From NCBI GenBank assembly GCA_023228145.1, contig JALOBU010000006.1, positions 12,398-76,397 of the forward strand: a stretch of 64,000 bases of DNA, read 5' to 3'. Every line of letters starts with the position of its first letter. The first letter of the stretch is position 1. The notes below the pieces were generated by a model. The model did no database searches. It was not told the DNA's origin and was given only the letters and a program-made list of their open reading frames with translations. Shown here piece by piece: positions 13,557 through 57,663 of this stretch. This stretch comes from Bacteroidales bacterium (GTDB taxonomy: Bacteria > Bacteroidota > Bacteroidia > Bacteroidales > CAIWKO01). The position numbers were made by a program, and so were the translations under genes.

Positions 13557-15449
13557 TTATTCAACAATAATTTTTTTAGTGATTCTTTCGTTGGCTGCTT
13601 CAACAGTGAAGAAATAGATGCCGGAATTCAGGCTCTTAATATTCATGCTGAGTGTATGGTTCCCGTTGATAAGTTTGCCGTAGGTTTTACTAATAACTTC
13701 CTGGCCGACAAGGTTGGTAACAGTAACTTTTACATCCGAACTTTTTTCAAGGTTCAGGTTGATATTAGTATAATCTGAACTTGGATTCGGGTAAATGTTC
13801 ATATTGATGTTGTTGCTGATATTTTCTTTCACACCGATGGCGGTGCCCACATCAGTTTTCATCAGGTTGGTATAATAAATATAATTGTCGCCATAGGCGG
13901 TTTCGTCGCCTCTTACAGCTAAGCCTACGATTACATCGGCCTGGTAAACGATGTGTAATTTATCGTCCATTGTAAATGACATGGACCCGAAAACACATTC
14001 ATCAAAATCGTGGAGGAATCCGGCATTTATATCTGTTGCATCCGACCAAGCGCCGTCATATTTAACCACATAAAGATGCCTGTATATCTGTCCGCCGTCG
14101 GGAGTAAGTCTGTCTTCGCGGCAGGAAGAGTAACTGATATACATAGTTCCATCATCATCTATATTTAGATGCGGAAAACTTGAGAGTGAAACATAATAAG
14201 TTCCGATAGCCCAGTCGCCGGAGGGTGTTGGAAATTCAATTTCTCCGCTGCCATCGTAATCAATCATATATCCTGCTAACATCCCGTTGTTGAATAAACC
14301 GTCAGGGTCACCTAATGCTGTAGAATCTAACACGGCCATATCTTCATTCCAGTAAACCAATCCATCAGTATAAGGGTAGAAAGATGACTGATCATCGCTA
14401 GCGTTATCATCTGATACTCTCATTATACCAAAGACAGCGTGGGCTTTGCCTGTTGAATCCAGTGCTAGTGCGTAACATCCGTCAGTTGTTGGAATGATAG
14501 GTGTGGGAATGGTAATGCCTGAGGGGAAATTATAGACGGGGATTTTTGTCCAGGTGTCTCCGCCGTCCGGTGATTTCATAATAAAAGTATTTGTCCAACT
14601 TTCACCAACAATAAATGCAATTTTTCCGTTTTTGGGATCTGCCCAGGAATAACTGTCACCACCAAAACCCTTACTGAATTCCGTAACTACTGAGGCTGAA
14701 TCCATTCCCGGAAGTATCCTGGGAGCATCCCATGTAGTTCCGCCATCCACTGACCTGATATATACCAATGCAAGAGATAATCCTTCATAGTACCAGTAGG
14801 TTCCGGTCGTGGTTGGTTGATCGGTGCAAGCAATGATGTGAATAGTGTCTCCTACAGTTATCATGCGGGGCCATAATAATGCGGTTTTGTCCGATCCACC
14901 AGTGGTTGCAGGGCCAACAAGGGTTGATTCTGTCCATGCACCTGTCCCTTTTGGTGTGCGTTTTGAGATTGTAAGGCCGGTGCTACCATTATGGCTAACA
15001 ACTATTTCCCCATTGGTTCCCAAGGGGGCATATGAGGGCCATCCGCTCCTTACAGTTTCTACCCTTTCAGTTGGCTGAGCTCCCCAGTTTGTAAGGTCAT
15101 AATAATTGTATCCTGTACCCCTGTCAGCAAACGATTCTTCTGTCATTCCGTAGTTATATGTAGCGCCAATAGTGCCATCATCATGCAGATAAATTCTGTT
15201 TTGTACAGAAGAATTTGACTGCAGGTCATACTTTGTTATACCGATAATAACTTCATTGATGGCTTTTGATGGCCTGGGTGTAACAGTTGGGTTTACTTCT
15301 GTACTGAAGTTTGTAAACTCATGAATGGCGCCATTTACCTTGGTTACTTTAAGGTATTTTAAAGCTGGGTCAATTTTTGCAGGAATATGCTGTGCCATGA
15401 CTGTGAAGCTAAAAATCAAAGCTACTGCTAATAATAAAACTTTTTTCAT
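13557..15449 (-). CDS. BNR/Asp-box repeat protein (sialidase-like beta-propeller) with T9SS CTD
   Basis: 630 aa with a signal peptide. Asp-box-like repeats are SVDGGTTWD and SPDGGDTWT. The C-terminal CTD is IYPNPSSDYTNINL...GIYFFTVEAANERITKKIIVE. Confidence 0.7.
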   Translation of the reverse strand: MKKVLLLAVALIFSFTVMAQHIPAKIDPALKYLKVTKVNGAIHEFTNFSTEVNPTVTPRPSKAINEVIIGITKYDLQSNSSVQNRIYLHDDGTIGATYNYGMTEESFADRGTGYNYYDLTNWGAQPTERVETVRSGWPSYAPLGTNGEIVVSHNGSTGLTISKRTPKGTGAWTESTLVGPATTGGSDKTALLWPRMITVGDTIHIIACTDQPTTTGTYWYYEGLSLALVYIRSVDGGTTWDAPRILPGMDSASVVTEFSKGFGGDSYSWADPKNGKIAFIVGESWTNTFIMKSPDGGDTWTKIPVYNFPSGITIPTPIIPTTDGCYALALDSTGKAHAVFGIMRVSDDNASDDQSSFYPYTDGLVYWNEDMAVLDSTALGDPDGLFNNGMLAGYMIDYDGSGEIEFPTPSGDWAIGTYYVSLSSFPHLNIDDDGTMYISYSSCREDRLTPDGGQIYRHLYVVKYDGAWSDATDINAGFLHDFDECVFGSMSFTMDDKLHIVYQADVIVGLAVRGDETAYGDNYIYYTNLMKTDVGTAIGVKENISNNINMNIYPNPSSDYTNINLNLEKSSDVKVTVTNLVGQEVISKTYGKLINGNHTLSMNIKSLNSGIYFFTVEAANERITKKIIVE

Positions 15450-29333: not shown

Positions 29334-31046
29334 CTAATGCATCACCATTATTTTTCTTGTTTCTTTAAAGTTGCCCGAACGTATGGATAAAAAGTATGTA
29401 CCGGCTTGTAATTCGGTTACATCCAGCCGCAGCATACGCTCATTAAGGTTTTTTTCATCTACCGCCATCACTTCTTTGCCTAAAATATCATACAAACGTA
29501 TCTGCGCAGAAGAATTTTTGGCTTGGCACATTTGTATGTAAATGTAATCCACAGCGGGATTGGGAAAAACGATGGCTTTGGTAATTTCTTTTTCTTCCAC
29601 CACGGTGGTTGTTCCGAACAAATAAAACTTATGCGGGTCGGGTTCTCCTATCAGCGGGTGTGTTTCGTTGCGCGGCGACTGGTCGGAGGCGTGGATATAA
29701 TAGGCTATGGTGTCGCCGTTTTGCTGCTGAGGAATTTCGGCTGTCCAACTGTTGCCCGAAGTGTTGGTCATGTTTATTTTTATCCAGGAGCTCCAGAAAC
29801 CGTGAAAAACTCTGTACTTTACATATACTGAATCGGGGATAATGTTGCTACCGCTTAAAGCGAATATTTCGGTATTTATGACATGTGCCTGTAGAGGCTT
29901 TTGGCCCAGCAATGGATAATGCTTTATGTACAACATGCCTTTATCTGCTATCTCGTGGGTGCGACAGTGCAGGGCATCGGTGGATTGCCAAGATGCAGTT
30001 GAAGCTAAGAAGCCTAAGACTTCATAGCCTGGCATGGCATTTTGGTAAACTTCTAATGCAGAATTATCGTATGTTGTGTTAGAACCACCTTTTATAGGCA
30101 CTAATACTTTCTTGTTTAAAATCAAAGAGTTTGTATAAGGTTGACCACTCGGCTCATAAACCCTGTAAACCTTATATTTGTTTCCAAAAGAAGAAGTTTC
30201 GTTTGCCCAGTAAGCCGCCATGGCTTCGTAATCGCTATAATGAGAATTGCTTGTAGGTACAGATGCAATCAATATTTTATCCACATCCAGAAACTTACCC
30301 CAGCAGTCTATATGTTTTATATAATCAGCCAAAGGGTCTGCAGTGATATAGTTCCTTTTAATACCCATATATTGACTAAACATTGTGTCAATCTGGGCAT
30401 GATTAAGAGTTTGATTTTCTTCTTCAACTAAATCAGTCATAGCTGCTACTTCAATTCCGTCACACATATAATTACCACCGGTGTGAAAGATGTTCATGCC
30501 GTACAAAGGCATTCCTATATATGTTGCTATAGCTCTTGGAATGGTGTCATCTGTTGGGCGATCTCTGTTGTAAGGGAAATCTATTATGGCAACAGTATTA
30601 TCATTTGTCATTATAAACCATGGACCGTAATCTCTTGTCCAATACGAGTTAAGAGGTCTAATCAAAAACTGACAGTTAGCTAGGTTTACTCCGTTTGAAT
30701 TATAATTATTTGTTACGGTGGTTTGTTGAAATGAAGAAGTAACAACGGTAATAACTTTGCAATCTTGAGACATTTCTTCGATTAGCGAATATGGGATGCC
30801 GAAATTGCCTGGGTAACTCACCAACACTGCCTGTGCGGGTTCCCATTCGGCTATGGGGCGTACCGTGCCGGTGGGCGGAGGTGTTTGGGTAAAGGCCTTG
30901 TTGTCTTTCAGCGGTGCATACAGCTCAGCCGAGTCGAGCATGTGGTATTTTGCCTGAAATTCATAAGGTACATTGCCAACATGTTGTGCGTAAGTATAAA
31001 GTGTAAAACAAAAATAACAGGATAAAATGGTAATAATACGTTGCAT
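29334..31046 (-). CDS. Secreted Porphyromonas-type peptidyl-arginine/agmatine deiminase family protein with T9SS CTD
   Basis: 571 aa counted from MQRIITILSCYF, which is the signal peptide. Guanidino-modifying motifs are WTRDYGPWF, HIDCWGKFL and the nucleophile context DALHCRTHE. The C-terminal CTD is VFPNPAVDYIYIQ...YFLSIRSGNFKETRKIMVMH. Confidence 0.75.
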   Translation of the reverse strand: MQRIITILSCYFCFTLYTYAQHVGNVPYEFQAKYHMLDSAELYAPLKDNKAFTQTPPPTGTVRPIAEWEPAQAVLVSYPGNFGIPYSLIEEMSQDCKVITVVTSSFQQTTVTNNYNSNGVNLANCQFLIRPLNSYWTRDYGPWFIMTNDNTVAIIDFPYNRDRPTDDTIPRAIATYIGMPLYGMNIFHTGGNYMCDGIEVAAMTDLVEEENQTLNHAQIDTMFSQYMGIKRNYITADPLADYIKHIDCWGKFLDVDKILIASVPTSNSHYSDYEAMAAYWANETSSFGNKYKVYRVYEPSGQPYTNSLILNKKVLVPIKGGSNTTYDNSALEVYQNAMPGYEVLGFLASTASWQSTDALHCRTHEIADKGMLYIKHYPLLGQKPLQAHVINTEIFALSGSNIIPDSVYVKYRVFHGFWSSWIKINMTNTSGNSWTAEIPQQQNGDTIAYYIHASDQSPRNETHPLIGEPDPHKFYLFGTTTVVEEKEITKAIVFPNPAVDYIYIQMCQAKNSSAQIRLYDILGKEVMAVDEKNLNERMLRLDVTELQAGTYFLSIRSGNFKETRKIMVMH

Positions 31047-31060
31047 ACTTATGTTTTTTA

Positions 31061-31068
31061 CAAATATA
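31061..31068 (-). promoter_or_regulatory. -7 promoter box (TATATTTG on minus strand) for the deiminase gene
   Basis: Plus-strand caaatata, 15 nt upstream of the ATG at 31046. It lies inside the longer ORF, which supports the shorter start. Confidence 0.55.
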
Positions 31069-31153
31069 AAAAAATATTTTTTTACTGTTTTACGCTGTGA
31101 TGTTTTTAACTTTATATTAAGAAACTGCTTTTTGATATTAAAACAAATAGGAT

Positions 31154-31161
31154 TAGTTTTG
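31154..31161 (+). promoter_or_regulatory. -7 promoter box (TAGTTTTG) for the membrane protein / radical SAM pair
   Basis: Perfect TAnnTTTG 33 nt upstream of the ATG at 31194. Confidence 0.5.
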
Positions 31162-31193
31162 TAGATTTTACTATACATATAACGTAATCTTAA

Positions 31194-45540: not shown

Positions 45541-46113
45541 ATGAAAGAGACAATTATGCATGCGGCAAGGGAGGTCTTCAGTAAGTTCGGCTTCAGGAAA
45601 ACAACGCTTGAGGATATTGCGAAACATATTGGTAAGGGAAAAACCGCCTTGTATTATTATTACAAAAACAAAGAAGAAATATTCGGGGCGGTGCTTGATT
45701 TTGAAGTTGAAAGGTTCAGCAACGAAATGATAAACACCCTTGAACATGAAACAAGCCCTCAGAAGAAACTGAGACGTTACATCACGAAACGCATGGAATT
45801 ATACAATTATGTTTTAAATTTCTATAGCGCCATAAAAAGTGAATACCTGGAAAATGTCGCTGTCTTTGAGAAAATCAGGCAAAAGTACGACCAGATGGAA
45901 ATTGAAATCGTTTCGGACATTCTCTCGGAAGGAATTGCGAAAAATGAATTTGTTGCCCGCGATGTTCATCTGACAGCCTATGCTATCATCCTTGCCATGA
46001 AAGGCTTTGAATACCCTTTTTCATACCAGCAGGATATCATAAAAATGGAAGAGGATATTGATAAACTCATGGATGTACTCTTTTACGGAATAATAAAAAC
46101 CCCAACAAAATAA
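45541..46113 (+). CDS. TetR/AcrR family transcriptional regulator
   Basis: 190 aa. The N-terminal HTH is IMHAAREVFSKFGFRKTTLEDIAKHIGKGKTALYYYYKNKEEIF. Confidence 0.9.
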   Translation: MKETIMHAAREVFSKFGFRKTTLEDIAKHIGKGKTALYYYYKNKEEIFGAVLDFEVERFSNEMINTLEHETSPQKKLRRYITKRMELYNYVLNFYSAIKSEYLENVAVFEKIRQKYDQMEIEIVSDILSEGIAKNEFVARDVHLTAYAIILAMKGFEYPFSYQQDIIKMEEDIDKLMDVLFYGIIKTPTK

Positions 46114-46151
46114 TAAAACACTTTTTCAAACTTCCCATCAACTCAAAATTT

Positions 46152-48632
46152 ATGTTTAAGTTTTCATCGTTTGTAATAAAATTCAGGTCGGCCATTATTG
46201 CCGTATGCCTGTTGTTTACGGCAGTTATGCTGTTTTTTCTTAAAGATATAAAAATTAATGCAGATATAACAACGTATCTTCCCGAAAGCGATTCGGTAGT
46301 GGCAAGGTTTAATTATATCAGCAAGCATTACTCCACAAGCCAGCTGGCAGTTATTATTGTTGAAGCTGAGAAAGATATTTTTACCAAAGAAACCCTGGAG
46401 CATATCAGCACACTGACCAAGGAACTGGAAAAATTTAACGGGGTAAGTTTTGTTACGAGCATCACCAATGTGCTGGATATAAAACTACCGGCTAATATTA
46501 ATGAGATGCTGGCTGATAGCTCTCTTACAAAAACTAACATTGATATCTCCGCACTGCCTCAGAATTTCGAAGATTTGAAAAAAATGCAGAATAATGCATC
46601 TTTACAGAAATCTTTAGCTCAGTTTGCCAGTTTTCAAAATACGCTTACCATTCCCCGCCTCATTGACGAAAATAATATTCCTCAATCTGCTGAGGAACTG
46701 AAAAAGCTTAAGGATTACGCACTGTCTAAAAAACTGTACAAAGACCGCCTGATATCTTCTAACTCCAGATATTCGGTAATCATATGCCATTTAAGCGAGT
46801 CGTCAGAACGAAATGATGTTGCCAAAAAAATAAGGGAGCATGTAATTTTGAAAAATTTCCCTGAAAAATTTTATTTCGAGGGAATGCCTTTTCAGGTGCT
46901 GAACATATTGGACTTTATCATGAGAGATTTGTTTTTTCTTACACCTCTTATTATTTTAGTTATCACTTTAGCTTTGCTGTTTAGTTTCAGAAGCCTGCGG
47001 GGCATTTTGGTTCCGGTGCTGGCTGTGGGTATGGGGACGATATGGAGCATGGGTATTATGAGCCTAGCAGGGGTGAAGCTTTCACCTATTTCTGATGCAA
47101 TACCTGTTGTGCTTTTTGCTGTGGGGGCGGCATACGGCATCCATATTGTAAATCGCTTCCGGCTGATGGTAAACTCCAGAGAAGAAAAAAAACAACAGAT
47201 TGTCAAAGCGCTTTCTGAAGTGGGAATTTCAGTGTTGCTGGCAGGGATTACAACCGTAATGGGTTTTATGTCGTTTATCTTTGGTTCTTACCTGAGCGTT
47301 ATCACTGAGTTTGGCATTTTTACAGCCATTGGAGTTTTGTTCATCCTGATGCTTTCCGTAACATTTACACCGGCTCTATTATCTTATTTTCCTGCTGAAA
47401 AGAAAGCGGTAAGCATTGGAAAGACTCATAAATATGATTTTTTGGGAGAATTTATTATCAGGTTATCCAAAGTTATTTTGCGCCGCCCGCTTATGATAAT
47501 TATCATCGCTGCCGCCGTAGTTATCGTATCGGTTGTCGGAATTCCTTTTCTTCAGAATAAGATTGACATACTGAATTATTTTAAACCCAATTCCGATATC
47601 AGACGTTCGGCATCAGTCATGAACAAAGAGTTTGGAGGCTCACTGCCTATCATGGTTCGCGTAAGGGGCGATATCATGAATCCGCAAACCCTGGCGAAAA
47701 TGAAAATGGTGCAGGGATTTATGGAACAGCAGCCGGATATCAGCAATGCTTTCTCTGTTGTTGATTTTTTTGAAGTGCTAAATAGTGGAGAGGATAAGGT
47801 CAACGTGCCTGAGACAATGAACATAAAAGATATTCAGAAACAAATACATCGTAGTACACCCTCAGAAGATAATTTTAAAGGCATGAAGGAATTGATAAAT
47901 CGTATATGGCCATTGATACAGGGGGAGGAAATGATTAAACAAATGATAAACCCGCAAAAGACAGAAGCTATCATACAGGCTTCGGTCCGTAATGTTGACA
48001 CGGAACGTTACCGCGAAATTTATAATTCGCTGAACACATTTCTGGCGCCGCTCAATACCTCAAATCTTTTGTTCGAGCAAACGGGTATGCCGGGTGTGTA
48101 TTCAAACTTTGATAACAGCATGAAGAAAAACCTGATTCAAAGCATTATACTTGCGCTGGTACTTGTTTATATATGTATGGTTTTTTTACTGCGCTCTGCC
48201 AAAAGCGCCATAGTGGGAATGATACCCCTGCTGGTTACCATGGTGCTTATTTTCGGTTTTATGGGATTTTCGGGTATCGCACTGGATATTGCTACCATCC
48301 TTATTGCAAGTATAACGGTTGGCGCAGGCATTGATTATGCCATTCACTTTATAACCGAATACAAACGGCAAATATCGAAAGGGCTGAATATTGATGATGC
48401 CATCACAAATACATTAAAAGTTACCGGCAGGCCGATAATAATTAATGTAATAACTATCATGCTGGGGTTTCTGGTGCTTATATTCGCCAGTATGATGCCA
48501 CTAATCAATTTCGGAATACTCATTGCCATTACCATGTTTTTTAGCGGCATGGGCTCTATCACCATTTTGCCATCTATTATAAAGCTCTTTAACCTTAGAC
48601 TTGTGAAAAAATTACCTGGGGAAAAAACATAA
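46152..48632 (+). CDS. MMPL/RND superfamily transporter (paralog 1, 826 aa)
   Basis: Two 6-TM bundles separated by large periplasmic loops. The sequence is 60-70% identical by eye to the ORF at 48997-51267. Two conserved blocks are shared with that ORF (its variants in parentheses): GxGIDYAIHF (GIDYSIHF) and SDAIPVVLFAVGAAYGIH (VLFSVGSAYGIH). Confidence 0.85.
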   Translation: MFKFSSFVIKFRSAIIAVCLLFTAVMLFFLKDIKINADITTYLPESDSVVARFNYISKHYSTSQLAVIIVEAEKDIFTKETLEHISTLTKELEKFNGVSFVTSITNVLDIKLPANINEMLADSSLTKTNIDISALPQNFEDLKKMQNNASLQKSLAQFASFQNTLTIPRLIDENNIPQSAEELKKLKDYALSKKLYKDRLISSNSRYSVIICHLSESSERNDVAKKIREHVILKNFPEKFYFEGMPFQVLNILDFIMRDLFFLTPLIILVITLALLFSFRSLRGILVPVLAVGMGTIWSMGIMSLAGVKLSPISDAIPVVLFAVGAAYGIHIVNRFRLMVNSREEKKQQIVKALSEVGISVLLAGITTVMGFMSFIFGSYLSVITEFGIFTAIGVLFILMLSVTFTPALLSYFPAEKKAVSIGKTHKYDFLGEFIIRLSKVILRRPLMIIIIAAAVVIVSVVGIPFLQNKIDILNYFKPNSDIRRSASVMNKEFGGSLPIMVRVRGDIMNPQTLAKMKMVQGFMEQQPDISNAFSVVDFFEVLNSGEDKVNVPETMNIKDIQKQIHRSTPSEDNFKGMKELINRIWPLIQGEEMIKQMINPQKTEAIIQASVRNVDTERYREIYNSLNTFLAPLNTSNLLFEQTGMPGVYSNFDNSMKKNLIQSIILALVLVYICMVFLLRSAKSAIVGMIPLLVTMVLIFGFMGFSGIALDIATILIASITVGAGIDYAIHFITEYKRQISKGLNIDDAITNTLKVTGRPIIINVITIMLGFLVLIFASMMPLINFGILIAITMFFSGMGSITILPSIIKLFNLRLVKKLPGEKT

Positions 48633-48729
48633 TTTTTAAATAAGTTTATAAACGGTTTAAAAAACTAGAAAATTATATTATTATCAACTCTTGTATTATA
48701 AATTCTTTTGCAGAAAATAAAAAATTATT

Positions 48730-48979
48730 ATGGAACCCAACAGCAGCGTGAAGATTTCAATACTTAAAGCAGCACAAAAAGTGTTCAGCAGGTATGGATA
48801 TAAAAAGACAAATCTCGAAGATATTGCAAAAATCATTGGAAAAGGCAAGAGTCATCATCGTCAGCATGAAGGGTTTTGAATTTTCTTTTTCAAGTGAAAA
48901 AGATATGAAACAAATAGAAAATGATATTGACCAGTTGCTGAATGTATTGTTTTATGGCATAGTGCCGAGGTCATTTTAA
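48730..48979 (+). pseudogene. TetR-family regulator pseudogene (internal deletion plus frameshift)
   Basis: Frame 1 encodes the HTH start MEPNSSVKISILKAAQKVFSRYGYKKTNLEDIAKIIGKGKS and then stops. Frame 2 continues with IIVSMKGFEFSFSSEKDMKQIENDIDQLLNVLFYGI. That matches the C-terminus of the intact TetR (IILAMKGFEYPFSYQQDIIKMEEDIDKLMDVLFYGI). About 110 codons are missing. Confidence 0.8.
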
Positions 48980-48996
48980 TCTGGTGTTTCAGGCTT

Positions 48997-51267
48997 ATGA
49001 GAAAATTTTCAACATTGGTTATTAAATTCAGGGCATTCATAATAATTGCCTTTACACTACTTACGGCTTTCATGGCGTATTTCCTTAAAGATTTAAAAAT
49101 AAACCCGGACATCACAACCTACCTGCCGAAAAGCGATTCTGTTGTTGCAAGGTTTAATTATATAGGCAGAAATTATTCCTCAAGCCTGATGGCGATTGTT
49201 ATTGTGGAAGCTGAAAAAGATGTTTTTACAAAAGAAACTTTGGAACATACCAGCGAGCTTACAACATCCCTGAAACTCGTTGAAGGTGTTGATTATGTTA
49301 CCAGCCTTACCAATGTACTCGACATAAAAAAAACCGATGATGGTTTCGAAATATCTCGTTTGATTGAAGAGAACAACCTTCCGAAAAGCAGCGAGGAATT
49401 AAAAAAAATTAAAGAATATACTTTAGGAAAAAAGCTTTACAGAGGAAACCTCGTTTCGGAAGATTCAAAATATACCGTAATCGTATGCCGCGTCAATCAG
49501 GATGTTGACAAAAACAGCGTGGCTAGAAAAATAAAAGAATCCGTTCTTTCAAAAAAATTCCCTGAAAAATATTATTTCGAAGGCGTACCTTTTCAGTTAA
49601 TGAATATAATGGATTTGGTTATTAAGGACTTAATGCTGCTGACGCCTTTAATTGTATTGCTTATTGCTTTTACTTTATTTATCAGTTTTCGGACATTTCG
49701 AGGCATATTGATTCCGGTTTTAGCTGTGGCCATGGGCGTTATCTGGAGCATGGGGCTGATGAGTATTTTACATGTAGAGCTTTCACCGATTTCTGACGCC
49801 ATACCGGTTGTGTTGTTTTCTGTAGGAAGCGCATACGGGATACATATATACAATAGGTTTAAGAGAGTTGTAAGGGATAAAAGCCTCAAAAAGGAACAAT
49901 CGGCATCAGCATTGCGTGAAGTTGGGCTGGCTGTTTTATTGGCGGGCCTGACTACCGTTATGGGTTTTCTTTCTTTTGTCTTTAACGCCTACCTGAACAT
50001 TATCAAGGAGTTTGGAATTTTTTCTGCATTGGGTGTTTTCTTTGTACTTATAATTTCTATCACATTTTCTCCGGCATTGCTGTCGTACTTTCCTGTAGAG
50101 AAAACTCATTTCCAACCTTTAAAAGCAGGGAAATTTCATTTCCTGGAAAGATTTCTCAACAAACTCTCCGCTTTTATCACATTTCACCCTAAGAAAATAC
50201 TTATCTCTTCGCTGTTATTGTTGTTGGGTATGGTTGCAGGCATCCCGCTGATAAAAGATAAAATTGACATTTTAAATTATTTTCGCCCGGAAACGGATAT
50301 GCGTATCACGGCATCCATAATGAATAAAGAATTTGGTGGCTCACTACCCATTATGGTTCTTGTCAGGGGTGATATTCAGAACCCGCTTGTACTCGAAAAA
50401 ATGAAAAAAATAAAAATATTTTTGGAACAGCAACCCGATATAAAAAATGTTTCTTATGTGGGCGATTTTATTGAAGAAATGAATGATTGCATGGGCGAGG
50501 GAAAAAAGATTCCTGACAGCCGCGATAAGGTTTCGAACCTGATGTTTCTTATTGAAGGGGACGATATGCTGCGCCAAATGATTAATAACGATAAAACAGA
50601 AGCGGTTATACAAGCCTATGTCAGGAATGTTGAAACGAAGAGATACAGAGAGATTTATTCTTCTTTGAATAAACTTATAGAAAGTTTAAGCACTAATGAA
50701 ATTACTTTTACACAGTCGGGAATGCCGGGGATTTATTCCAATTTTGACGACAGCCTGATGAATAACCTATTGCAAAGCCTTGTTCTTTCCCTGGTGTTGA
50801 TTTTTATTACCATGATATTCTTGCTGCGTTCCATCAAAAGCGCTTTTGTGGGAATAATCCCGCTCTTATTCACTATGGTTGTTATTTTTGGCTTTATGGG
50901 TTATGCGGGAATCGCGCTGGATATTTGCACTATCTTAATAGCAAGTATTACCGTCGGAGCAGGCATTGATTATTCCATACATTTTATTACAGAATACAAA
51001 AATCATATTATTAAGGGCCGAAGCATTAAAGATGCTATCTCTAATACCATTCTTATATCAGGGAAATCCATAGTAATCAATATCATAACAGTTATGTTGG
51101 GATTTTTGGTGCTGATTTTTGCCAATCTTCTTCCTCTCGTCAATTTTGGCATTCTGGTTGCAATAACTATGTGCTTTAGTGGTATTGGTGCCATAACGAT
51201 ATTGCCGGCTGTTATTACTTTGTTTAACCTTAAACTCGTTAATAAAAATAAAATAATTTCCAATTAA
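48997..51267 (+). CDS. MMPL/RND superfamily transporter (paralog 2, 756 aa)
   Basis: Collinear with paralog 1, but it lacks two periplasmic-loop insertions. Confidence 0.85.
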   Translation: MRKFSTLVIKFRAFIIIAFTLLTAFMAYFLKDLKINPDITTYLPKSDSVVARFNYIGRNYSSSLMAIVIVEAEKDVFTKETLEHTSELTTSLKLVEGVDYVTSLTNVLDIKKTDDGFEISRLIEENNLPKSSEELKKIKEYTLGKKLYRGNLVSEDSKYTVIVCRVNQDVDKNSVARKIKESVLSKKFPEKYYFEGVPFQLMNIMDLVIKDLMLLTPLIVLLIAFTLFISFRTFRGILIPVLAVAMGVIWSMGLMSILHVELSPISDAIPVVLFSVGSAYGIHIYNRFKRVVRDKSLKKEQSASALREVGLAVLLAGLTTVMGFLSFVFNAYLNIIKEFGIFSALGVFFVLIISITFSPALLSYFPVEKTHFQPLKAGKFHFLERFLNKLSAFITFHPKKILISSLLLLLGMVAGIPLIKDKIDILNYFRPETDMRITASIMNKEFGGSLPIMVLVRGDIQNPLVLEKMKKIKIFLEQQPDIKNVSYVGDFIEEMNDCMGEGKKIPDSRDKVSNLMFLIEGDDMLRQMINNDKTEAVIQAYVRNVETKRYREIYSSLNKLIESLSTNEITFTQSGMPGIYSNFDDSLMNNLLQSLVLSLVLIFITMIFLLRSIKSAFVGIIPLLFTMVVIFGFMGYAGIALDICTILIASITVGAGIDYSIHFITEYKNHIIKGRSIKDAISNTILISGKSIVINIITVMLGFLVLIFANLLPLVNFGILVAITMCFSGIGAITILPAVITLFNLKLVNKNKIISN

Positions 51268-51290
51268 TAGTTTTAATAAATACTTATTAC

Positions 51291-52034
51291 ATGAAAAAGT
51301 TTTTAATAATCGTATTAGTATCTTTAACAGTACCTTTTTTCACTTTTTTTAGCGCTTCTGCTCAGAGCGCTTCTGACATTCTCCAAAAAGTGGACGATAT
51401 CATCAATGCACCAAAAGATCAGTTTATTAACATGACTATTACTATTTATGATAAAAGTTTAAAAGAAAGTGTCCGTACAATGGTTACTAGGCAAAAAGGC
51501 AGTGATAAACGCCTGGTAAAGTTTCTGACTCCGGCCGACCAGAAAGGAATCGGGTTTCTTTCGTTGCCAAACGACAACCTTACCGTTTACTTGCCTGCTT
51601 TCGGAAAGACAAGAAAGATAGGCTCTTCTGTGAAAAATTCAAAATTTGCCGGTACCGATTTTTCTTATGAAGATATGGAAGCGAAAAGGTATTCAAGTAA
51701 ATGGAATCCGAAACTTATAACCACAGCAGGAGGGTATTATGTTCTGGAGTTGACACCTAAAACAGGTATTGTTACTGATTATTTAAAGCTCATGATGTAT
51801 GTCCGTACACAGGATAATTACCCCGTAAAAGTGGAACATTACGATAAAGGCGGAAAACTTTATAAGGTGCTCACAGATAATAAAATTACAAAAATAGGCT
51901 CATATACTATTGCCAAAGAACTGGTTATGGAGGATAAAAAGAACGGTACAAAAACAAAAATGGTAATGACCAGTATTAAATTTGATAATGGGTTTACTGA
52001 TGATATTTTTTCTGAAAGGGAGCTAATAAAATAA
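51291..52034 (+). CDS. Outer membrane lipoprotein-sorting (LolA-like) periplasmic protein
   Basis: 247 aa with a signal peptide. The pattern RLVKFLTPADQKGIGFLSLPNDNLTVYLPAFGKTRKIGSSVKNSKFAGTDFSYEDME is typical of the LolA_like family. Confidence 0.75.
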   Translation: MKKFLIIVLVSLTVPFFTFFSASAQSASDILQKVDDIINAPKDQFINMTITIYDKSLKESVRTMVTRQKGSDKRLVKFLTPADQKGIGFLSLPNDNLTVYLPAFGKTRKIGSSVKNSKFAGTDFSYEDMEAKRYSSKWNPKLITTAGGYYVLELTPKTGIVTDYLKLMMYVRTQDNYPVKVEHYDKGGKLYKVLTDNKITKIGSYTIAKELVMEDKKNGTKTKMVMTSIKFDNGFTDDIFSERELIK

Positions 52035-52062
52035 AACTTTCTTGTTCAATTTTAATTCGGAT

Positions 52063-53598
52063 ATGAAACTGAGAGTTTTTGCAATCACTTTTCTGATATT
52101 TATATCATTTGAAAAGATTTATGCACAGCAGGATACATCATTGATTTCATTACCCGATACTTCATTTTTATTTTCTGCTGAAGAATTTCCTGTGGTGGAA
52201 GAACCTGTAACAGTGCTGCCCGAAGAGCCCAAATTATCTGTTTTCGGTTACATTCAAACTGATGACAGATTAAAATTTTACGGTGGGAAATTAAATCATC
52301 AGGAATATCGATTGGATGTTAAACTGGAGTATAAACCTTTTGAAAGAGGAAAATTATTTGCAGAGGTTTGGCTGAGGTCATATAAGTTCCCCGAAATATA
52401 CAATATTAGCGATTTGTCAGAAAAGAAAAAGGTGCTCAATTTTGATGCAGATATCCGGGAAGCCTATTTTGATATTTACGGATTGTTTACAAAAAACCTT
52501 GATATCAGGATTGGACGCCAGAGAATTGCATGGGGAACAGCTGACAAGCTAAATCCTACAGATAATCTAAACCCTTATGACATGGAAGATATCTGGGATT
52601 TTGGCAGGCACTTGGGTTCTAATGCAATAAAACTGACATATTATGCCGGGTCTTTTACTTTTACAGGAGTAGCGATACCCTGGTTTACACCGGCGGTGTT
52701 ACCTAATTCCGAGTGGACGGCTGCTTACATGCCCTCTTTTGAAATCCCTGAAAAGTTAGTGGATACAAGTTTTATTTCCGGTGTGGCTTTACCAATATAT
52801 CTCACCCCGGGAAATATCTCCGACACACTCGTACTGCCTCAGCGAACCATCAAACATTATCCTTCATTCGGCTTAAAAGCACAAAAAAGCATAGGGAATT
52901 TTAATATTTCGCTTAGCTACTCTTATGGCCGCGATGCGCTTCCTCTTCCAACGGAAATGAGCACTACCCTCACAATTGATACTTTTATGCTGGCGCCTGA
53001 ATTGCGTGCCGATGCTACCATTGATATTAGAACGAAAGTGGAGTTTCCCGTTATGAAAGTGATAGGGCTGGATTTTGCCGGCTCGGTGAAAGGTATAGGT
53101 ATCTGGGGCGAAGCAGCCTGTTTTCTTCCTCAGAAAAATTATATGAAACGCTACCTGCATTATACCCTATATGGAGTAACTATTGATTCTGTGCTTTCGG
53201 ATTCGCTGGTGTTGGATAACAAACCTTATGTGAAATTTGTTGTGGGGCTGGATTATACCTTCAGACATGGATTTTACCTTAATTTTCAATACCTTCACGG
53301 CTTTGTAAATGAACGTGGACCAAAGGAACTTAATGATTATTATATCCTTGCCTTTGAATGGACGTCCGATAACGGAAAACTTAAAATCGGAATACTTAAC
53401 GGTGGAATACAGGTTAACAATTATAAAAAAATCAATAGTAATTTTGCATGGATTTATATGCCGGAAATTTCATACAAACCCATGGATAATGCAGAGCTGA
53501 TACTCGGAGCTCATTTGCTTGATGGTAGCCCCACCACCAGTTTTGGTAAAGTAACTAAAAACGATGATATTTACCTAAAGCTTAGGTATAGTTTCTGA
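52063..53598 (+). CDS. Putative outer-membrane beta-barrel protein (function unknown)
   Basis: 512 aa with signal peptide MKLRVFAITFLIFISFEKIYAQ. Amphipathic strands alternate throughout, and the C-terminus LKLRYSF ends in Phe, which is an OMP signature. Confidence 0.6.
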   Translation: MKLRVFAITFLIFISFEKIYAQQDTSLISLPDTSFLFSAEEFPVVEEPVTVLPEEPKLSVFGYIQTDDRLKFYGGKLNHQEYRLDVKLEYKPFERGKLFAEVWLRSYKFPEIYNISDLSEKKKVLNFDADIREAYFDIYGLFTKNLDIRIGRQRIAWGTADKLNPTDNLNPYDMEDIWDFGRHLGSNAIKLTYYAGSFTFTGVAIPWFTPAVLPNSEWTAAYMPSFEIPEKLVDTSFISGVALPIYLTPGNISDTLVLPQRTIKHYPSFGLKAQKSIGNFNISLSYSYGRDALPLPTEMSTTLTIDTFMLAPELRADATIDIRTKVEFPVMKVIGLDFAGSVKGIGIWGEAACFLPQKNYMKRYLHYTLYGVTIDSVLSDSLVLDNKPYVKFVVGLDYTFRHGFYLNFQYLHGFVNERGPKELNDYYILAFEWTSDNGKLKIGILNGGIQVNNYKKINSNFAWIYMPEISYKPMDNAELILGAHLLDGSPTTSFGKVTKNDDIYLKLRYSF

Positions 53599-53794
53599 CA
53601 ACTTATTTTTTAAGCTGATGTGCTATTGCTGTGTTTATGATTTAAGTGCAAAACATTTTTTTATTTAATCATCATTAAACCAAATAGAATTTCCATTGAA
53701 AGCACTGTAATTTTGAAAATTTAACCTCGTTTGCTAACAATGAACTTGTTAAAACAATAAAACCGGCAATAAATTTTGAACAAATATTCTTTTG

Positions 53795-53802
53795 TATATT
53801 TG
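53795..53802 (+). promoter_or_regulatory. -7 promoter box (TATATTTG) for the PP2C-LysM gene
   Basis: Perfect TAnnTTTG 21 nt upstream of the ATG at 53823. Confidence 0.55.
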
Positions 53803-53822: not shown

Positions 53823-55493
53823 ATGGCATCTTTAAAAGACAGCGGATATTTTAATTATACTGCCCTAAGCGATACAGGGCTTTTATGTTCTCAAAATAAA
53901 GATGAGTTCGCATATTTTGAAAGTATCAACGGTCATGTTTTTATCGTATGTGACGGACAGGGTGGTTGTAACGATAAGCCTGCAGCATCAAAACGTGCGG
54001 TGGATTGCATACGTGCATACCTTGAAAATCATTATTTTGATATGCCTGAAGATGCTTTGAAAGCAGCCATTGAATATGCCAACGCCATCGTATTTAAAAA
54101 TTCAAAGGAAATTTCTGCCTTTGGAGGAATGAGCACTACTATTGTAATGATGATAGTCCGTTATGAAAAAGTATATTATGCTCATGTCGGTAATAGCAGG
54201 ATTTATATCTTTTCTAATGGAGAATTATCATGTTTGACACAAGACCATTATCTGGTGGTTTTTCCTTCGGAACAAACTGACAAAGAATCTTCTGATAGCA
54301 GAAATGAACGAAAACCAGCTTATTTCCCCAGAACCCTTGGGAGCGGGCCAAATATTGATATTACCATTTGCAGTTCTCCCGCTTTTCCCGCCAGGGGCGA
54401 TTTTATATTAATGTGTACCGATGGAATTACATCAAAACTTGAAGACAATGAAATAGTTTCAGTGTTGGCTGACAGTGCTGTGCCTGAAGAAAAAGCAAAA
54501 CGCCTGATACAGCTTGCTAATTCTAAAGGTGGAACGGATAACATGACGGTAATGCTTGTGGATTTTTATAATGTTTCTAACCGAAAGTCCAGGTTTGTTA
54601 AAGCTACTCAGCAAACAACGGCAGAAATTCCTTTGGTTAAAAGCCCTATTCTAAAAACTCCTGACTTATTCGAACAGGAAATCATTGTGGATAACGGAGA
54701 ACAAAATGAAGTTGAGGAAATTTCGCCACAGAAAATAGTATCAAACGAAATCTCAGCGAAAGAAGCAGAACCGCTTACACCAGATGAAGAAACGTCTGTA
54801 AGTGTTAAAGATATAAATACTGAACCTGAGCCTCAGACATATCAGGAAACAAAAGTATTTCAAGAAATTAAAGCGGAACCATTATTTGAAGAAAGTCCGG
54901 AGCCTCAGGAAAATAATAAAATACCTGATGATTCGGAAAGTAATGCCGGTAGTTTTTTTTCGCGCTTGTTTAACCGGCTGAATGTTATTGGTAAGAACAG
55001 ACCCAGGTTAAAAGTTGTATTGATTGTTTTGGGAGCCGTTTTGCTTGCATATATTGTTTGGGACCTGTTCATAAAGCAGGGAGCGACATCAAAAATCAGT
55101 AATAAACCAGACACGATGCTAAACGACACTTCTGAACCTAGCAGGAAGAGTCCAGAAAATGATAAAATAGCCGAAGAAAAAAGCACGGCCCCGGATACAA
55201 TCTGGATAAGTTATTCCGTAAAAAAAGGAGATTTTCTGGGGACTATTGCTGCCAAATTCGGGCTTACAGTTGACTATATAAAAAAGAAAAACAAGCTAAC
55301 TAACGACAATATCCGTGAAAAACAAAAACTGGATATCCCAACTAAAGCAAACTACCAGGTAAAAGCCGGAGAAACTTTTGATATGATAGGAAAAAGATTT
55401 CAGGTGGATAAAAAAAGAATCATGAAAGCTAATGATATCTCTGATGAGAAAAATATCAGGGAAGGCAGGAATATTATCATCCCATTTAAATGA
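53823..55493 (+). CDS. Membrane-anchored PP2C-family Ser/Thr phosphatase with two C-terminal LysM domains
   Basis: 556 aa. PP2C motifs are VCDGQGG, HVGNSRIY, LMCTDG and GGTDNMTVMLVDF. An acidic/Pro-rich linker follows, then one TM helix (VVLIVLGAVLLAYIVWDLFI). Two LysM repeats follow (YSVKKGDFLGTIAAKFG...; YQVKAGETFDMIGKRFQ...). Confidence 0.8.
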   Translation: MASLKDSGYFNYTALSDTGLLCSQNKDEFAYFESINGHVFIVCDGQGGCNDKPAASKRAVDCIRAYLENHYFDMPEDALKAAIEYANAIVFKNSKEISAFGGMSTTIVMMIVRYEKVYYAHVGNSRIYIFSNGELSCLTQDHYLVVFPSEQTDKESSDSRNERKPAYFPRTLGSGPNIDITICSSPAFPARGDFILMCTDGITSKLEDNEIVSVLADSAVPEEKAKRLIQLANSKGGTDNMTVMLVDFYNVSNRKSRFVKATQQTTAEIPLVKSPILKTPDLFEQEIIVDNGEQNEVEEISPQKIVSNEISAKEAEPLTPDEETSVSVKDINTEPEPQTYQETKVFQEIKAEPLFEESPEPQENNKIPDDSESNAGSFFSRLFNRLNVIGKNRPRLKVVLIVLGAVLLAYIVWDLFIKQGATSKISNKPDTMLNDTSEPSRKSPENDKIAEEKSTAPDTIWISYSVKKGDFLGTIAAKFGLTVDYIKKKNKLTNDNIREKQKLDIPTKANYQVKAGETFDMIGKRFQVDKKRIMKANDISDEKNIREGRNIIIPFK

Positions 55494-55500
55494 GCTTTCT

Positions 55501-57663
55501 ATGGCAGGGGAAACATCTAAAGGCGGAAAGAAAGCGTCTTTAAAGCAAAAAGCATCACAGCACAGGCCTCCTATTACCATAGAAAATAAACAAAAAAGAG
55601 GACTGCCGGCTAAATATATAAAATGGCTTGTTTTTGCTTTTGCATTAGCGTTATATGCAAATACGCTTGACCTGAAATATGCTTCCGATGATTCATTGAT
55701 GATTACCGGAAATGAGTTTACAAAAAAAGGAATATCCGGTATAAAAGATATACTTACCAATGATGCGTTTGTAGGTTTTCTTGGTAAAAACAACCTCTTG
55801 CCCGGAGGTCGTTACCGCCCCCTGACTCAAGTTATGTTTGCTGTTGAAAAAGAATTGTTTGGCTTTAACCCATTTGTAGGTCATTTGCTTAACATAATTT
55901 TTTACGCCATCACCTGCATGCTTCTTTTTGTAATTCTGCAAAGACTTTTTCGAAATTATACAGCAAATTACTGGTATCTGAGCATTGCATTTATTGCTGC
56001 GATTTTGTTTACGGCACATCCCCTGCATACCGAAGCTGTTGCAAATATCAAAGGGCGTGATGAAATTATGAGTTTGTTTTTTTCACTGCTCACGGTGTGG
56101 CTTGTTCTGGTGTACCTCGAAAAACAAAAACTGTGGATGATTATTTTAAGTGCAGTCACATTTATTATGGCTATTTTGTCCAAAGAAAATGCTGTTACAT
56201 TTATATTAATTGTTCCCCTGATACTTTTTGTTTTTACAAAGTCAAAAAAAAGAGACCATATACTTTGCCTGTCTTCGCTCATAGCTGCTGCCCTTATATA
56301 TTTTGTCTTCAGGATAAGCATGATAGGGTTGAGGTTAGGTGATATTAAAGTAGTGGAATTACTCAATGACCCGTTCACAGACGCAACATTTATTGAAAAA
56401 TATGCAACTGTTTTTTATACCTGGTTAAAATACCTTGGACTGATGATTTTTCCACACCCGCTGACTCATGATTATTACCCAAAACAAATTCCAATAATTA
56501 ATTTTTCGGATGTCAGGGCTTTGCTGTCTTTTTTAATATATACCACTTTACTTGTGTTTGCCCTCTGGAAGATAAAAAACAAAAACATGTATGCTTTCGG
56601 AATATTGTTCTTTTTTATAACTTTTTCTACCGTATCAAATTTTGTGATTAATGTCGGGACTTTTATGAACGAGCGTTTCTTGTTTACTTCTTTGACAGGA
56701 TTCACAATAATTGTTGCATATTTTCTTGCTGTTACTTTGAGAAAAAAAATTAAAAACACTAGTACATACAGAACATGGGTTATCGTAGTTTTGGTTTTGG
56801 TTTTATCGGCTTATTCAATAAAAACTGTTAGCCGCAACAGAGTATGGATGGACGATTTCACGCTTTTTACCACGGATGTTAAGGTCTCGGCAAACAGCAC
56901 AAAATGTAACACCTCTGCAGGAGGCAAGTTGCTCGAAAAAGCCGACTCCAATGACAACGAGATTCAAAAAAATAAATATATAACACAATCGGTAAAATAT
57001 CTTACCAAAGCTCTGGAAATTTATCCCAAAAATCTTAATGCATTGATATTGCTCGGCAATGCAAAAATCAAACAAAAAGAATATGCGGCTAGTCGAAATT
57101 GCTATGCGGCTTGCCTTGCATATAACCCGAAACATAACCATGCCCTTAACAACTTACTGCACCTCGCACAATATACTTATGATAAAGACGTCTATGATGA
57201 GTCAGCGAAAACATATACCCTTTTGTTGAAATACCAACCCGATATACCTGAGAACTATTTCGGCTTAGGCCTTGCATACAGGGGCATGCAGAAATATGAT
57301 TCCGCCTTATCTTTTCTGAATCATGCACAGAAATTAAAACCTGATTATGTGGAAGCTATAAGCAAAATGGGCGAGATTTATGGGCAGGACCTACACAATC
57401 TTGATAGTTCCGAAGCTTTTTTTCAGAAGGCTTTAACAATCAAACCCGATGATGAATCATCACTTGAAAACCTTGGAATTGTTTTTGGCATACGGCGTAA
57501 CTACGAAAAATCATTATTTTATTTTCGTAAAGCACTGGAATTAGAACCCGACAAACATCAGCTTTATATGAATATTGCCGAAACATACCGCCTTATGGGA
57601 GATATGAAGTCATACACTGAGTATAAAATGAAATCTGAACAAATTTTTAATAAAAAACAATAA
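55501..57663 (+). CDS. TMTC-like GT-C membrane protein with C-terminal TPR repeats
   Basis: 721 aa counted from MAGETSKGG. The N-terminal polytopic region has YASDD in the first loop and GGRYRPLT. The C-terminal ~300 aa contain TPR repeats. The gene starts 8 nt after the PP2C stop. Confidence 0.7.
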   Translation: MAGETSKGGKKASLKQKASQHRPPITIENKQKRGLPAKYIKWLVFAFALALYANTLDLKYASDDSLMITGNEFTKKGISGIKDILTNDAFVGFLGKNNLLPGGRYRPLTQVMFAVEKELFGFNPFVGHLLNIIFYAITCMLLFVILQRLFRNYTANYWYLSIAFIAAILFTAHPLHTEAVANIKGRDEIMSLFFSLLTVWLVLVYLEKQKLWMIILSAVTFIMAILSKENAVTFILIVPLILFVFTKSKKRDHILCLSSLIAAALIYFVFRISMIGLRLGDIKVVELLNDPFTDATFIEKYATVFYTWLKYLGLMIFPHPLTHDYYPKQIPIINFSDVRALLSFLIYTTLLVFALWKIKNKNMYAFGILFFFITFSTVSNFVINVGTFMNERFLFTSLTGFTIIVAYFLAVTLRKKIKNTSTYRTWVIVVLVLVLSAYSIKTVSRNRVWMDDFTLFTTDVKVSANSTKCNTSAGGKLLEKADSNDNEIQKNKYITQSVKYLTKALEIYPKNLNALILLGNAKIKQKEYAASRNCYAACLAYNPKHNHALNNLLHLAQYTYDKDVYDESAKTYTLLLKYQPDIPENYFGLGLAYRGMQKYDSALSFLNHAQKLKPDYVEAISKMGEIYGQDLHNLDSSEAFFQKALTIKPDDESSLENLGIVFGIRRNYEKSLFYFRKALELEPDKHQLYMNIAETYRLMGDMKSYTEYKMKSEQIFNKKQ

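Follow-up and report, generated by a model that had tools for sequence, protein, structure and literature searches.

Ser/Thr signalling in the Bacteroidota is almost unexplored. Our study concerns a pair of genes in a stretch of 64,000 nucleotides from a Bacteroidales bacterium (GCA_023228145.1, contig JALOBU010000006.1, positions 12,398 to 76,397 of the forward strand; hereafter the window). The first gene encodes a protein of 556 residues in which a PP2C phosphatase domain is joined through a linker and a transmembrane (TM) helix to two LysM domains (PP2C-LysM), and the second encodes a TMTC-like GT-C glycosyltransferase with C-terminal TPR (GT-C/TPR). The features of the locus are listed in Table 1. 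We examined the domains, predicted topology and active site of the PP2C-LysM protein, its relatives and their gene neighbours, and we weighed what the protein might do in the lineage to which the window belongs.

The PP2C-LysM protein and its predicted topology

The open reading frame (ORF) of the PP2C-LysM gene is intact, and Pfam recognised both of its domain types: the PP2C/PP2C_2 match spans residues 24-248 (PF00481, 46.4 bits; PF13672, 39 bits; both above their cut-offs), and the two LysM copies (PF01476) reach 73.8 bits against a cut-off of 20.9. The sole hydrophobic segment of the protein lies at residues 396-417 (Kyte-Doolittle 2.6). Between the PP2C domain and the helix, residues 251-395 make up a segment of 145 residues with 28 D+E, 17 K+R and 13 Pro, so that the acidic, Pro-rich linker of about 130 residues proposed in the initial annotation was about right; the length of the tether differs roughly five-fold across the family alignment. 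An AlphaFold2 model computed from a 29-member family alignment gave a confident PP2C fold (predicted local distance difference test, pLDDT, >90, with the exception of the flap at 150-161), a disordered tether, a short helix, one long helix with the limits shown in Table 1, and a disordered spacer (420-456). The LysM pair, which is basic (22 K+R vs 12 D+E), was modelled twice as strand-helix-helix-strand, the beta-alpha-alpha-beta fold of this domain, at a pLDDT of ~88. Pfam, hydropathy and AlphaFold2 together therefore recover the parts that had been listed for this gene, namely a PP2C domain, a disordered linker, one TM helix and two LysM domains.

When the model was compared with the PDB using Foldseek, the best matches were tPphA, the STP of Streptococcus agalactiae and PstP (probability 1.00; TM-score to target 0.80-0.86). 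The best solved relatives by sequence were tPphA (E=4e-28), S. agalactiae STP, Stp1 of Staphylococcus aureus and PstP of Mycobacterium tuberculosis. By its fold, the window protein is a member of the PPM/PP2C superfamily.

Three independent lines agree on a predicted N-in/C-out orientation, which puts the catalytic domain on the cytoplasmic side of the membrane and the LysM domains on the periplasmic side. First, hydropathy: the protein has no N-terminal signal sequence or hydrophobic segment, and it has a single TM segment. Second, the positive-inside rule: the 15 residues before the helix contain more K+R than those after it in all 29 family members, with means of 5.4 on the N side vs 2.3 on the C side and a net charge of +4.4 vs +0.9. 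Third, the distribution of glycosylation sequons: it has been reported that D(S/T)(A/I/L/M/T/V) is the general O-glycosylation sequon of the Bacteroidota and marks extracytoplasmic proteins (PMC10897501). The spacer that follows the TM helix (43-60 residues) carries two or three such sequons in 28 of the 29 members, and their density per 100 residues is 4.9 in the spacer vs 0.16 in the cytoplasmic part, a difference of about 30-fold. The spacer of the window protein holds DTM and, just before the first LysM domain, D458-T459-I; the D458-T459 pair is kept in 28 of the 29 members even though the rest of the spacer is poorly conserved. Judging by these sequons, the LysM stalk is probably O-glycosylated. 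The placement of the catalytic domain inside and of the LysM repeats outside the cytoplasm, as originally proposed, agrees with all three lines, and the window protein has the layout of PstP, in which one TM helix links a cytoplasmic PP2C domain to a C-terminal domain beyond the membrane. The gene encodes a PstP/Stp1-type bitopic inner-membrane protein, with a tethered cytoplasmic PP2C domain, one TM helix and a periplasmic tandem of LysM domains.

Table 1. Features of the PP2C-LysM locus, in positions of the window
Feature	Position	Strand	Remark	Evidence
TAnnTTTG site	53708-53715	+	upstream of PP2C-LysM gene	pattern count
TATATTTG, matches TAnnTTTG, tentative	53795..53802	+	21 nucleotides before ATG	pattern count
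PP2C - linker - TM - spacer - LysM x2 gene	53823..55493	+	556 residues	ORF, Pfam, AlphaFold2 model, identical protein on 14 contigs
Predicted cytoplasmic PP2C domain	53841..54620	+	residues ~7-266	tPphA alignment, family alignment, NCBIfam score
Disordered acidic Pro-rich tether	54621..54953	+	residues 267-377	pLDDT <50, composition, variable family length
Juxtamembrane helix and single TM helix	54954..55073	+	residues 378-386 and 393-417	hydropathy, AlphaFold2, flanking K+R
Predicted periplasmic spacer	55074..55211	+	residues 418-463, two D-T-x sequons	sequon density across 29 members
Two LysM domains	55212..55490	+	residues 464-506 and 511-555	Pfam, pLDDT ~88, subclade identity
TMTC-like GT-C glycosyltransferase, C-terminal TPR	55501..57663	+		Pfam, orthologue alignments, conserved synteny, reciprocal test

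The GT-C/TPR partner and the gene arrangements of relatives

Three starts are available for the partner gene: the mechanical ORF begins at 55432, the start at 55444 chosen by one gene caller gives 739 residues and a 50-nucleotide overlap with the PP2C-LysM gene, and the start at 55501 chosen by others gives 720 residues and lies seven bases after the PP2C-LysM stop codon. Orthologue alignment favours the last of these. The product has the features of a GT-C/TPR protein: matches to PMT_2 (33.9 bits, cut-off 26.1) and to TMTC_DUF1736 (28.1 bits, cut-off 27), many TPR at its C-terminal end, and a DD motif (D63-D64) after the first TM segment that is invariant in nine orthologues. A DD in the first loop after TM1 has been described for the TMTC O-mannosyltransferases (PMC7801869), and the partner shares PMT_2, TMTC_DUF1736, the C-terminal TPR and the invariant DD with eukaryotic TMTC1-4. 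It differs from them in being bacterial, in a DUF1736 score only just above the cut-off, and in its membrane segments, since 11 TM regions have been reported for TMTCs (PMC7801869) and hydropathy finds at least nine hydrophobic segments in the partner. A literature search for a known Bacteroidota GT-C/TPR enzyme (O-oligosaccharyltransferase) returned nothing usable.

The association between the two genes is conserved and specific. Every one of the clade's 16 non-redundant loci has a GT-C/TPR gene directly downstream of PP2C-LysM, with intergenic gaps of 0-54 nucleotides and outer flanks that differ, and the partner orthologues (55-65% identity) are more conserved than PP2C-LysM itself. In the reciprocal test, GT-C homologues of at least 60% identity had PP2C-LysM directly upstream in 9/9 metagenomic loci with enough upstream DNA, and in a tenth, incomplete locus the LysM end is visible upstream. 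For GT-C homologues of 54% identity or less, PP2C-LysM was found upstream in 0 of ~60 loci, and many of these are tandem GT-C/TPR duplicates. The pairing with a downstream GT-C/TPR gene, first suggested by adjacency in the window, thus holds across relatives, and in the Bacteroidales clade of the window PP2C-LysM and GT-C/TPR form an obligate pair. All loci found with the pair come from metagenome-assembled genomes or metagenome contigs, and none from a cultured organism. The spacing of the two genes suggests that they are probably co-transcribed, and no terminator-like site was seen between them. As a separate observation, the distant GT-C/TPR homologues (42-50%) often occur as tandem pairs with PP2C-LysM absent from their vicinity (metagenome loci L099, L102, L103, L106-L109, L114, L115 and L127 in our numbering), which implies that the GT-C/TPR family has several paralogous lineages in these bacteria.

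The PP2C-TM-LysM architecture is not rare. A HMMER search of 1.84 billion cluster representatives (E<=1e-30) gave 437 proteins, and domain order was assigned among the best 150 with local hidden Markov models built from the family alignment. Among these best 150 of the 437, 64 have the PP2C-TM-LysM order, which corresponds to at least 64 clusters at 50% identity, mostly from Bacteroidota, and in another 70, with PP2C domain and TM helix, no LysM could be detected. A scan of species-representative genomes gave 77 loci, nearly all of them from Bacteroidota (Bacteroidales, Cytophagales, Sphingobacteriales and Flavobacteriales), with a few from Chlorobi. The family is populated throughout the Bacteroidota and already annotated by domain, with database names such as 'Stp1/IreP family PP2C-type Ser/Thr phosphatase' and 'PrpC/LysM repeat protein'.

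The loci that we fetched were scanned with PP2C, LysM, GT-C, kinase and FHA queries, and the neighbours were checked by Pfam. The commonest arrangement is kinase-linked (45 non-redundant loci): FHA, VWA-FHA, PP2C with or without LysM, a Hanks kinase and often further FHA genes. In the GT-C/TPR-linked arrangement (the window and 15 other non-redundant loci, PP2C identity 39-53%), PP2C-LysM is followed directly by GT-C/TPR, which holds the exact position of the kinase gene. One locus, L007, has the order FHA, FHA, PP2C-LysM, GT-C/TPR and looks like an intermediate. Neighbour-joining analysis of the PP2C domains groups the GT-C-linked proteins in a single clade, in which three kinase-linked PP2C-LysM proteins (L023, L024 and L082) are nested. 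The relatives thus adjoin Hanks kinases and FHA proteins, which establishes the kinship of the window protein with wall-linked Ser/Thr signalling and bears out the association with wall-associated signalling that had been proposed from the window alone.

Within the window itself the kinase linkage is absent. A phmmer search with two Bacteroidota kinases and four FHA sequences against all ORFs of at least 50 residues gave no hit at E<=10 in the 64 kb, and Pfam found no Hanks kinase and no FHA domain among 26 of the larger ORFs, in agreement with the initial remark that the window holds no Hanks-type kinase. Linkage to a Hanks kinase and FHA genes, as in the PstP locus, is accordingly a property of the relatives and not of the window. 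It is important to note that the missing kinase is not incidental, since the GT-C/TPR gene occupies the position that the kinase has in the relatives.

Several further observations were made on the relatives. A third PP2C-TM-LysM subfamily (eight loci, from Salinivirgaceae and other Bacteroidales) has neither a kinase nor a GT-C gene downstream; in its NUDIX-linked arrangement PP2C-LysM is followed by a NUDIX gene, checked by Pfam at L057:7983-10405 and L075:7989-9824 (same subfamily: L066, L069, L070, L074, L079 and L081). Its proteins have a divergent DGHDG in place of DGMGG and Lys in place of the phosphate-site Arg, and score 135.9 bits on the Stp1/IreP model. In Microscillaceae, a Hanks kinase with a C-terminal LysM (L026:9685-11184 on the + strand, also L027, L028 and L033; Pkinase 102 bits, LysM 30.4 bits) lies directly after a PP2C gene that lacks LysM and before a second kinase; this protein parallels, in bacteria, the LysM receptor kinases of plants. 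One kinase of the relatives has a weak SH3_3 match after the kinase domain (26.1 bits in Pfam, below the 27-bit cut-off). A domain swap, in which the relatives' kinases and the GT-C protein would share their TPR, was considered and rejected, as similarity between them was absent at E<=1e-3.

Active-site divergence and proposed function

The active site of the window copy is partly preserved and partly altered. The metal-binding residues D27, D44, D200 and D239 (M1/M2 ligands) are kept, and the glycine/Asn motif residues are intact in alignments with tPphA and the family (D44-G45, D200-G201 and D239-N240). The third-metal ligand, D119 of tPphA, is N124 in the window copy, so that four of the five metal-binding Asp described for these enzymes (PMC3375153) are present. 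Both the motif 1 Arg and the His after DGMGG of Stp1/IreP are replaced: the phosphate-binding R13 of tPphA corresponds to C22 and the conserved H39 to C49. The Met of DGMGG has become Q46, and at 141-175 nothing recognisable is left of the flap motif S..VQ.L.D.G....EA..HP.RN. The initial annotation had named missing catalytic Asp residues as a point that would count against it; this applies to one of the five (N124), whereas D27, D44, D200 and D239 are in place.

These changes are concentrated in the window lineage. The third-metal Asp is found in 45/45 kinase-linked and in 15/16 GT-C-linked proteins, the sole replacement being that of the window protein. The phosphate-site Arg is found in 45/45 kinase-linked proteins, and among the 16 GT-C-linked ones 10 have R, five have M and one has C. 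With the Stp1/IreP model NF033484 the window protein scores 170.8 bits vs a cut-off of 230, and nine relatives of its clade score 235-261; by the curated cut-off, the window protein lies outside this NCBIfam equivalog. Its identity to the subclade is 50.7% over the PP2C domain, 22.9% over the flap and 70.6% over the LysM pair, compared with 68.4%, 63.5% and 74.5%, respectively, among the subclade members. At 74 near-invariant PP2C positions it has 10 unique changes (the others have a mean of 1.5 and a maximum of 5), whereas the LysM pair has two at 22 positions, both conservative. It also forms the longest branch of its clade in the neighbour-joining tree. By these comparisons, the divergence of the window lineage is confined to the PP2C domain, and the LysM pair evolves at a normal rate.

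Divergence of this kind could be the mark of a decaying gene, or of an annotation or assembly artefact, that has no function, and the window protein is indeed the most divergent member of the family, with an NCBI name that refers to a LysM protein only. Several factors make this explanation extremely improbable. First, all 556 codons of the ORF are open, and the other two frames across the flap (141-175) contain stops and no family-like sequence, on which grounds a compensated double frameshift was rejected as the origin of the divergent flap. Second, the identical protein was called on 14 contigs from independent samples, and the exact protein is present in the Bacteroidales metagenome-assembled genome GCA_028703075.1. 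Third, the fold is predicted with confidence, the LysM identity to relatives is normal and the synteny is kept.

It has been reported that all three metals are essential in PP2C enzymes, that Arg13 of tPphA assists substrate binding, with R13 variants showing a higher Km or reduced activity without being dead, that this Arg varies in some bacterial PP2Cs, and that substrate recognition is the role of His39 and the flap (PMC3375153). With replacements at the third-metal Asp, the Arg and the His and in the flap, the window copy cannot be assumed to have full phosphatase activity; its residues point to catalysis that is probably weaker or altered in substrate range. In a stronger version, the PP2C domain would be a non-catalytic pseudophosphatase with a binding or structural role, and the protein a scaffold that anchors the GT-C/TPR glycosyltransferase relative to peptidoglycan. 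The accelerated divergence of the PP2C domain alone, with LysM and partner gene conserved, fits this proposal, as does the loss of the Arg in 6/16 GT-C-linked vs 0/45 kinase-linked proteins, which suggests that the phosphate site may have come under weaker constraint after the kinase ceased to be the neighbour. However, an inert domain should lose the four M1/M2 Asp together with G45, G201 and N240, and these are invariant even in the window copy; moreover, 15/16 GT-C-linked proteins keep the Asp at position 124 and nine relatives pass the Stp1/IreP cut-off, so that the clade as a whole looks catalytic. We therefore regard the pseudophosphatase as unlikely.

The initial annotation went in the opposite direction: it presented the protein as the phosphatase counterpart of the PASTA-domain kinases, which would couple wall status to dephosphorylation. 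In full, the protein would be an active phosphatase, switched by muropeptides through its LysM domains and opposing a Hanks kinase encoded elsewhere. The presence of Hanks kinases and FHA proteins beside the relatives speaks for this model, as do the four remaining metal-binding Asp with their DG, DG and DN motifs and the highly confident fold; some Microscillaceae kinases of the same cluster type carry LysM, which places this domain on both sides of the signalling. Against it stand the replacement, only in the window lineage, of the third-metal Asp, Arg, His and flap, the score below the Stp1/IreP cut-off, and the failure to find a kinase or FHA gene within the 64 kb. In addition, allosteric transmission of ligand binding from the outside is unlikely because the tether is disordered, 110-145 residues long and variable in length. 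The model as a whole seems rather improbable to us; the comparison with PASTA kinases stands by analogy in layout, and the PASTA-kinase-like sensing of wall status that went with it is not upheld.

Localisation or tethering is a more economical reading than sensing of the PASTA-kinase type. We accordingly favour, with some reserve, a PstP-like phosphatase tethered to peptidoglycan, with weakened or changed catalysis, which would act together with the glycosyltransferase and depend on where it is placed, not on an allosteric signal through the membrane. The LysM pair would bind the glycan strands of peptidoglycan, as its domain family suggests, and this binding would set the position of the protein, which could be a site of wall synthesis or the vicinity of the GT-C/TPR enzyme; no conformational signal would pass across the membrane. 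The tethered PP2C domain would act on phospho-Ser/Thr proteins near the membrane. In the window lineage the selected functions may be peptidoglycan tethering and the partnership with the glycosyltransferase, with catalysis weakened or re-specified.

It is important to consider the points that weigh against this interpretation. Asn is still able to coordinate a metal, and tPphA with a changed Arg13 remains partly active; the window enzyme may thus be fully competent towards its natural substrate. The absence of kinase and FHA genes covers the 64-kb window, and a Hanks kinase, an FHA protein or a second canonical PP2C may lie elsewhere in the genome. Co-transcription is predicted from gene spacing, and peptidoglycan binding by the LysM pair from its domain family. 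Finally, the neighbour-joining tree has no support values and contains nested kinase-linked proteins, which makes the number and order of the events uncertain.

A bolder proposal, to which we assign a low probability, is that in one Bacteroidales clade PP2C-LysM was uncoupled from Hanks-kinase signalling and recruited to a TMTC-like periplasmic glycosyltransferase, as a subunit that is bound to peptidoglycan and regulates or targets the enzyme. In one variant, GT-C/TPR may add glycans to the LysM stalk, with its many sequons, or to proteins associated with the wall nearby; in the other, the PP2C domain may gate the GT-C/TPR enzyme from the cytoplasmic side.

Neighbouring genes, known systems and significance

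The intergenic region upstream of PP2C-LysM (224 nucleotides) contains two TAnnTTTG sites vs ~0.17 expected (Table 1), a pattern that we take to be the -7 promoter motif of Bacteroidetes; a scan of the locus for sigma-70 promoters and terminators did no better than shuffled sequence. Directly upstream, at 45541-53598 (+), are genes for a TetR regulator, two tandem MMPL/RND-type transporters (826 and 756 residues), a member of the LolA-like family PF17131 and a DUF1302-like beta-barrel. In L004 and L005 (PP2C 45% identical) the pair is likewise preceded by TetR, MMPL (one gene here), LolA-like and DUF1302 genes, and in L006 and L007 it is not; across the clade the outer flanks include this MMPL/LolA-like/DUF1302 set, a pyridine-nucleotide oxidoreductase and an aminotransferase. 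Elsewhere in the window, a gene at 29334-31178 (-) encodes a peptidyl-arginine deiminase domain of the Porphyromonas type (PF04371, 108 bits) fused to a C-terminal sorting domain of the type IX secretion system, from which a secreted or surface enzyme is predicted. Further cargo proteins of this secretion system are encoded at 118-1764 and 13557-15449.

Among known systems, the closest comparison is with PstP of M. tuberculosis and M. smegmatis, which is encoded in the locus fhaA-fhaB-pstP-rodA-pbpA-pknA-pknB and is tied to wall synthesis and division (PMC6554272). The window protein shares with PstP the cytoplasmic PP2C domain, the juxtamembrane linker, the single TM helix and an extracytoplasmic domain; its PP2C domain matches the structures 1txo and 2cm1, and the FHA-FHA-PP2C-kinase clusters of its relatives match the actinobacterial gene order. 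It differs from PstP in its ectodomain, a tandem of LysM domains predicted to be periplasmic in these diderm Bacteroidales. In its clade GT-C/TPR replaces the kinase neighbour and there are no rodA or pbpA genes, and the PP2C domain of the window copy has lost the third-metal Asp, Arg and His as well as the conserved flap. The soluble PP2Cs of the Stp1/IreP type and tPphA (NF033484; PDB 2pk0, 5f1m and 2j82) are the best matches in sequence and fold, with ~30% identity to tPphA (E=4e-28), and relatives from the same clade pass the NF033484 cut-off. Unlike these enzymes, the window protein bears the TM and LysM extension, falls short of that cut-off (170.8 vs 230) and has C22, C49 and N124 at the positions of R13, H39 and D119 of tPphA. 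The PASTA Hanks kinases (PknB, StkP and PrkC) offer an analogy in layout, with a cytoplasmic Ser/Thr domain, one TM helix and a peptidoglycan-binding module outside. However, the window enzyme is a phosphatase, of opposing activity, with LysM in place of the PASTA fold and a long disordered tether, and a mechanism of ligand-dependent dimerisation is not evident in it.

With respect to novelty, literature searches for characterised PP2C-LysM proteins or for eukaryotic-like Ser/Thr kinases and phosphatases of Bacteroidota returned only papers on plant LysM kinases and PP2C and general reviews, and LysM goes unmentioned in a 2025 survey of the domain architectures of bacterial PP2Cs. No earlier functional characterisation of the architecture was found. 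As far as we found, there is no earlier description of the LysM ectodomain, of a TMTC-like glycosyltransferase in the place of the kinase neighbour, or of an active site that decays in one lineage. None of these features overturns current understanding.

The family is the Bacteroidota's own version of the actinobacterial FhaA-FhaB-PstP-PknB module of wall regulation, in which LysM takes the place that PASTA has in Gram-positive bacteria. The clade of the window provides a natural experiment, in that a conserved TMTC-like glycosyltransferase has taken the place of the kinase beside the phosphatase, whose active site is eroding in one lineage of the clade while the peptidoglycan-binding part is not. 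Either variant of the subunit proposal, if true, would join the hardware of Ser/Thr phospho-signalling directly and physically to the glycosylation of proteins or of the envelope, a link that is undescribed in bacteria. The gene pair thus provides a concrete handle on two questions: whether the ectodomains of membrane-anchored PP2Cs are for localisation or for sensing, and what role the bacterial TMTC-like GT-C/TPR enzymes have.

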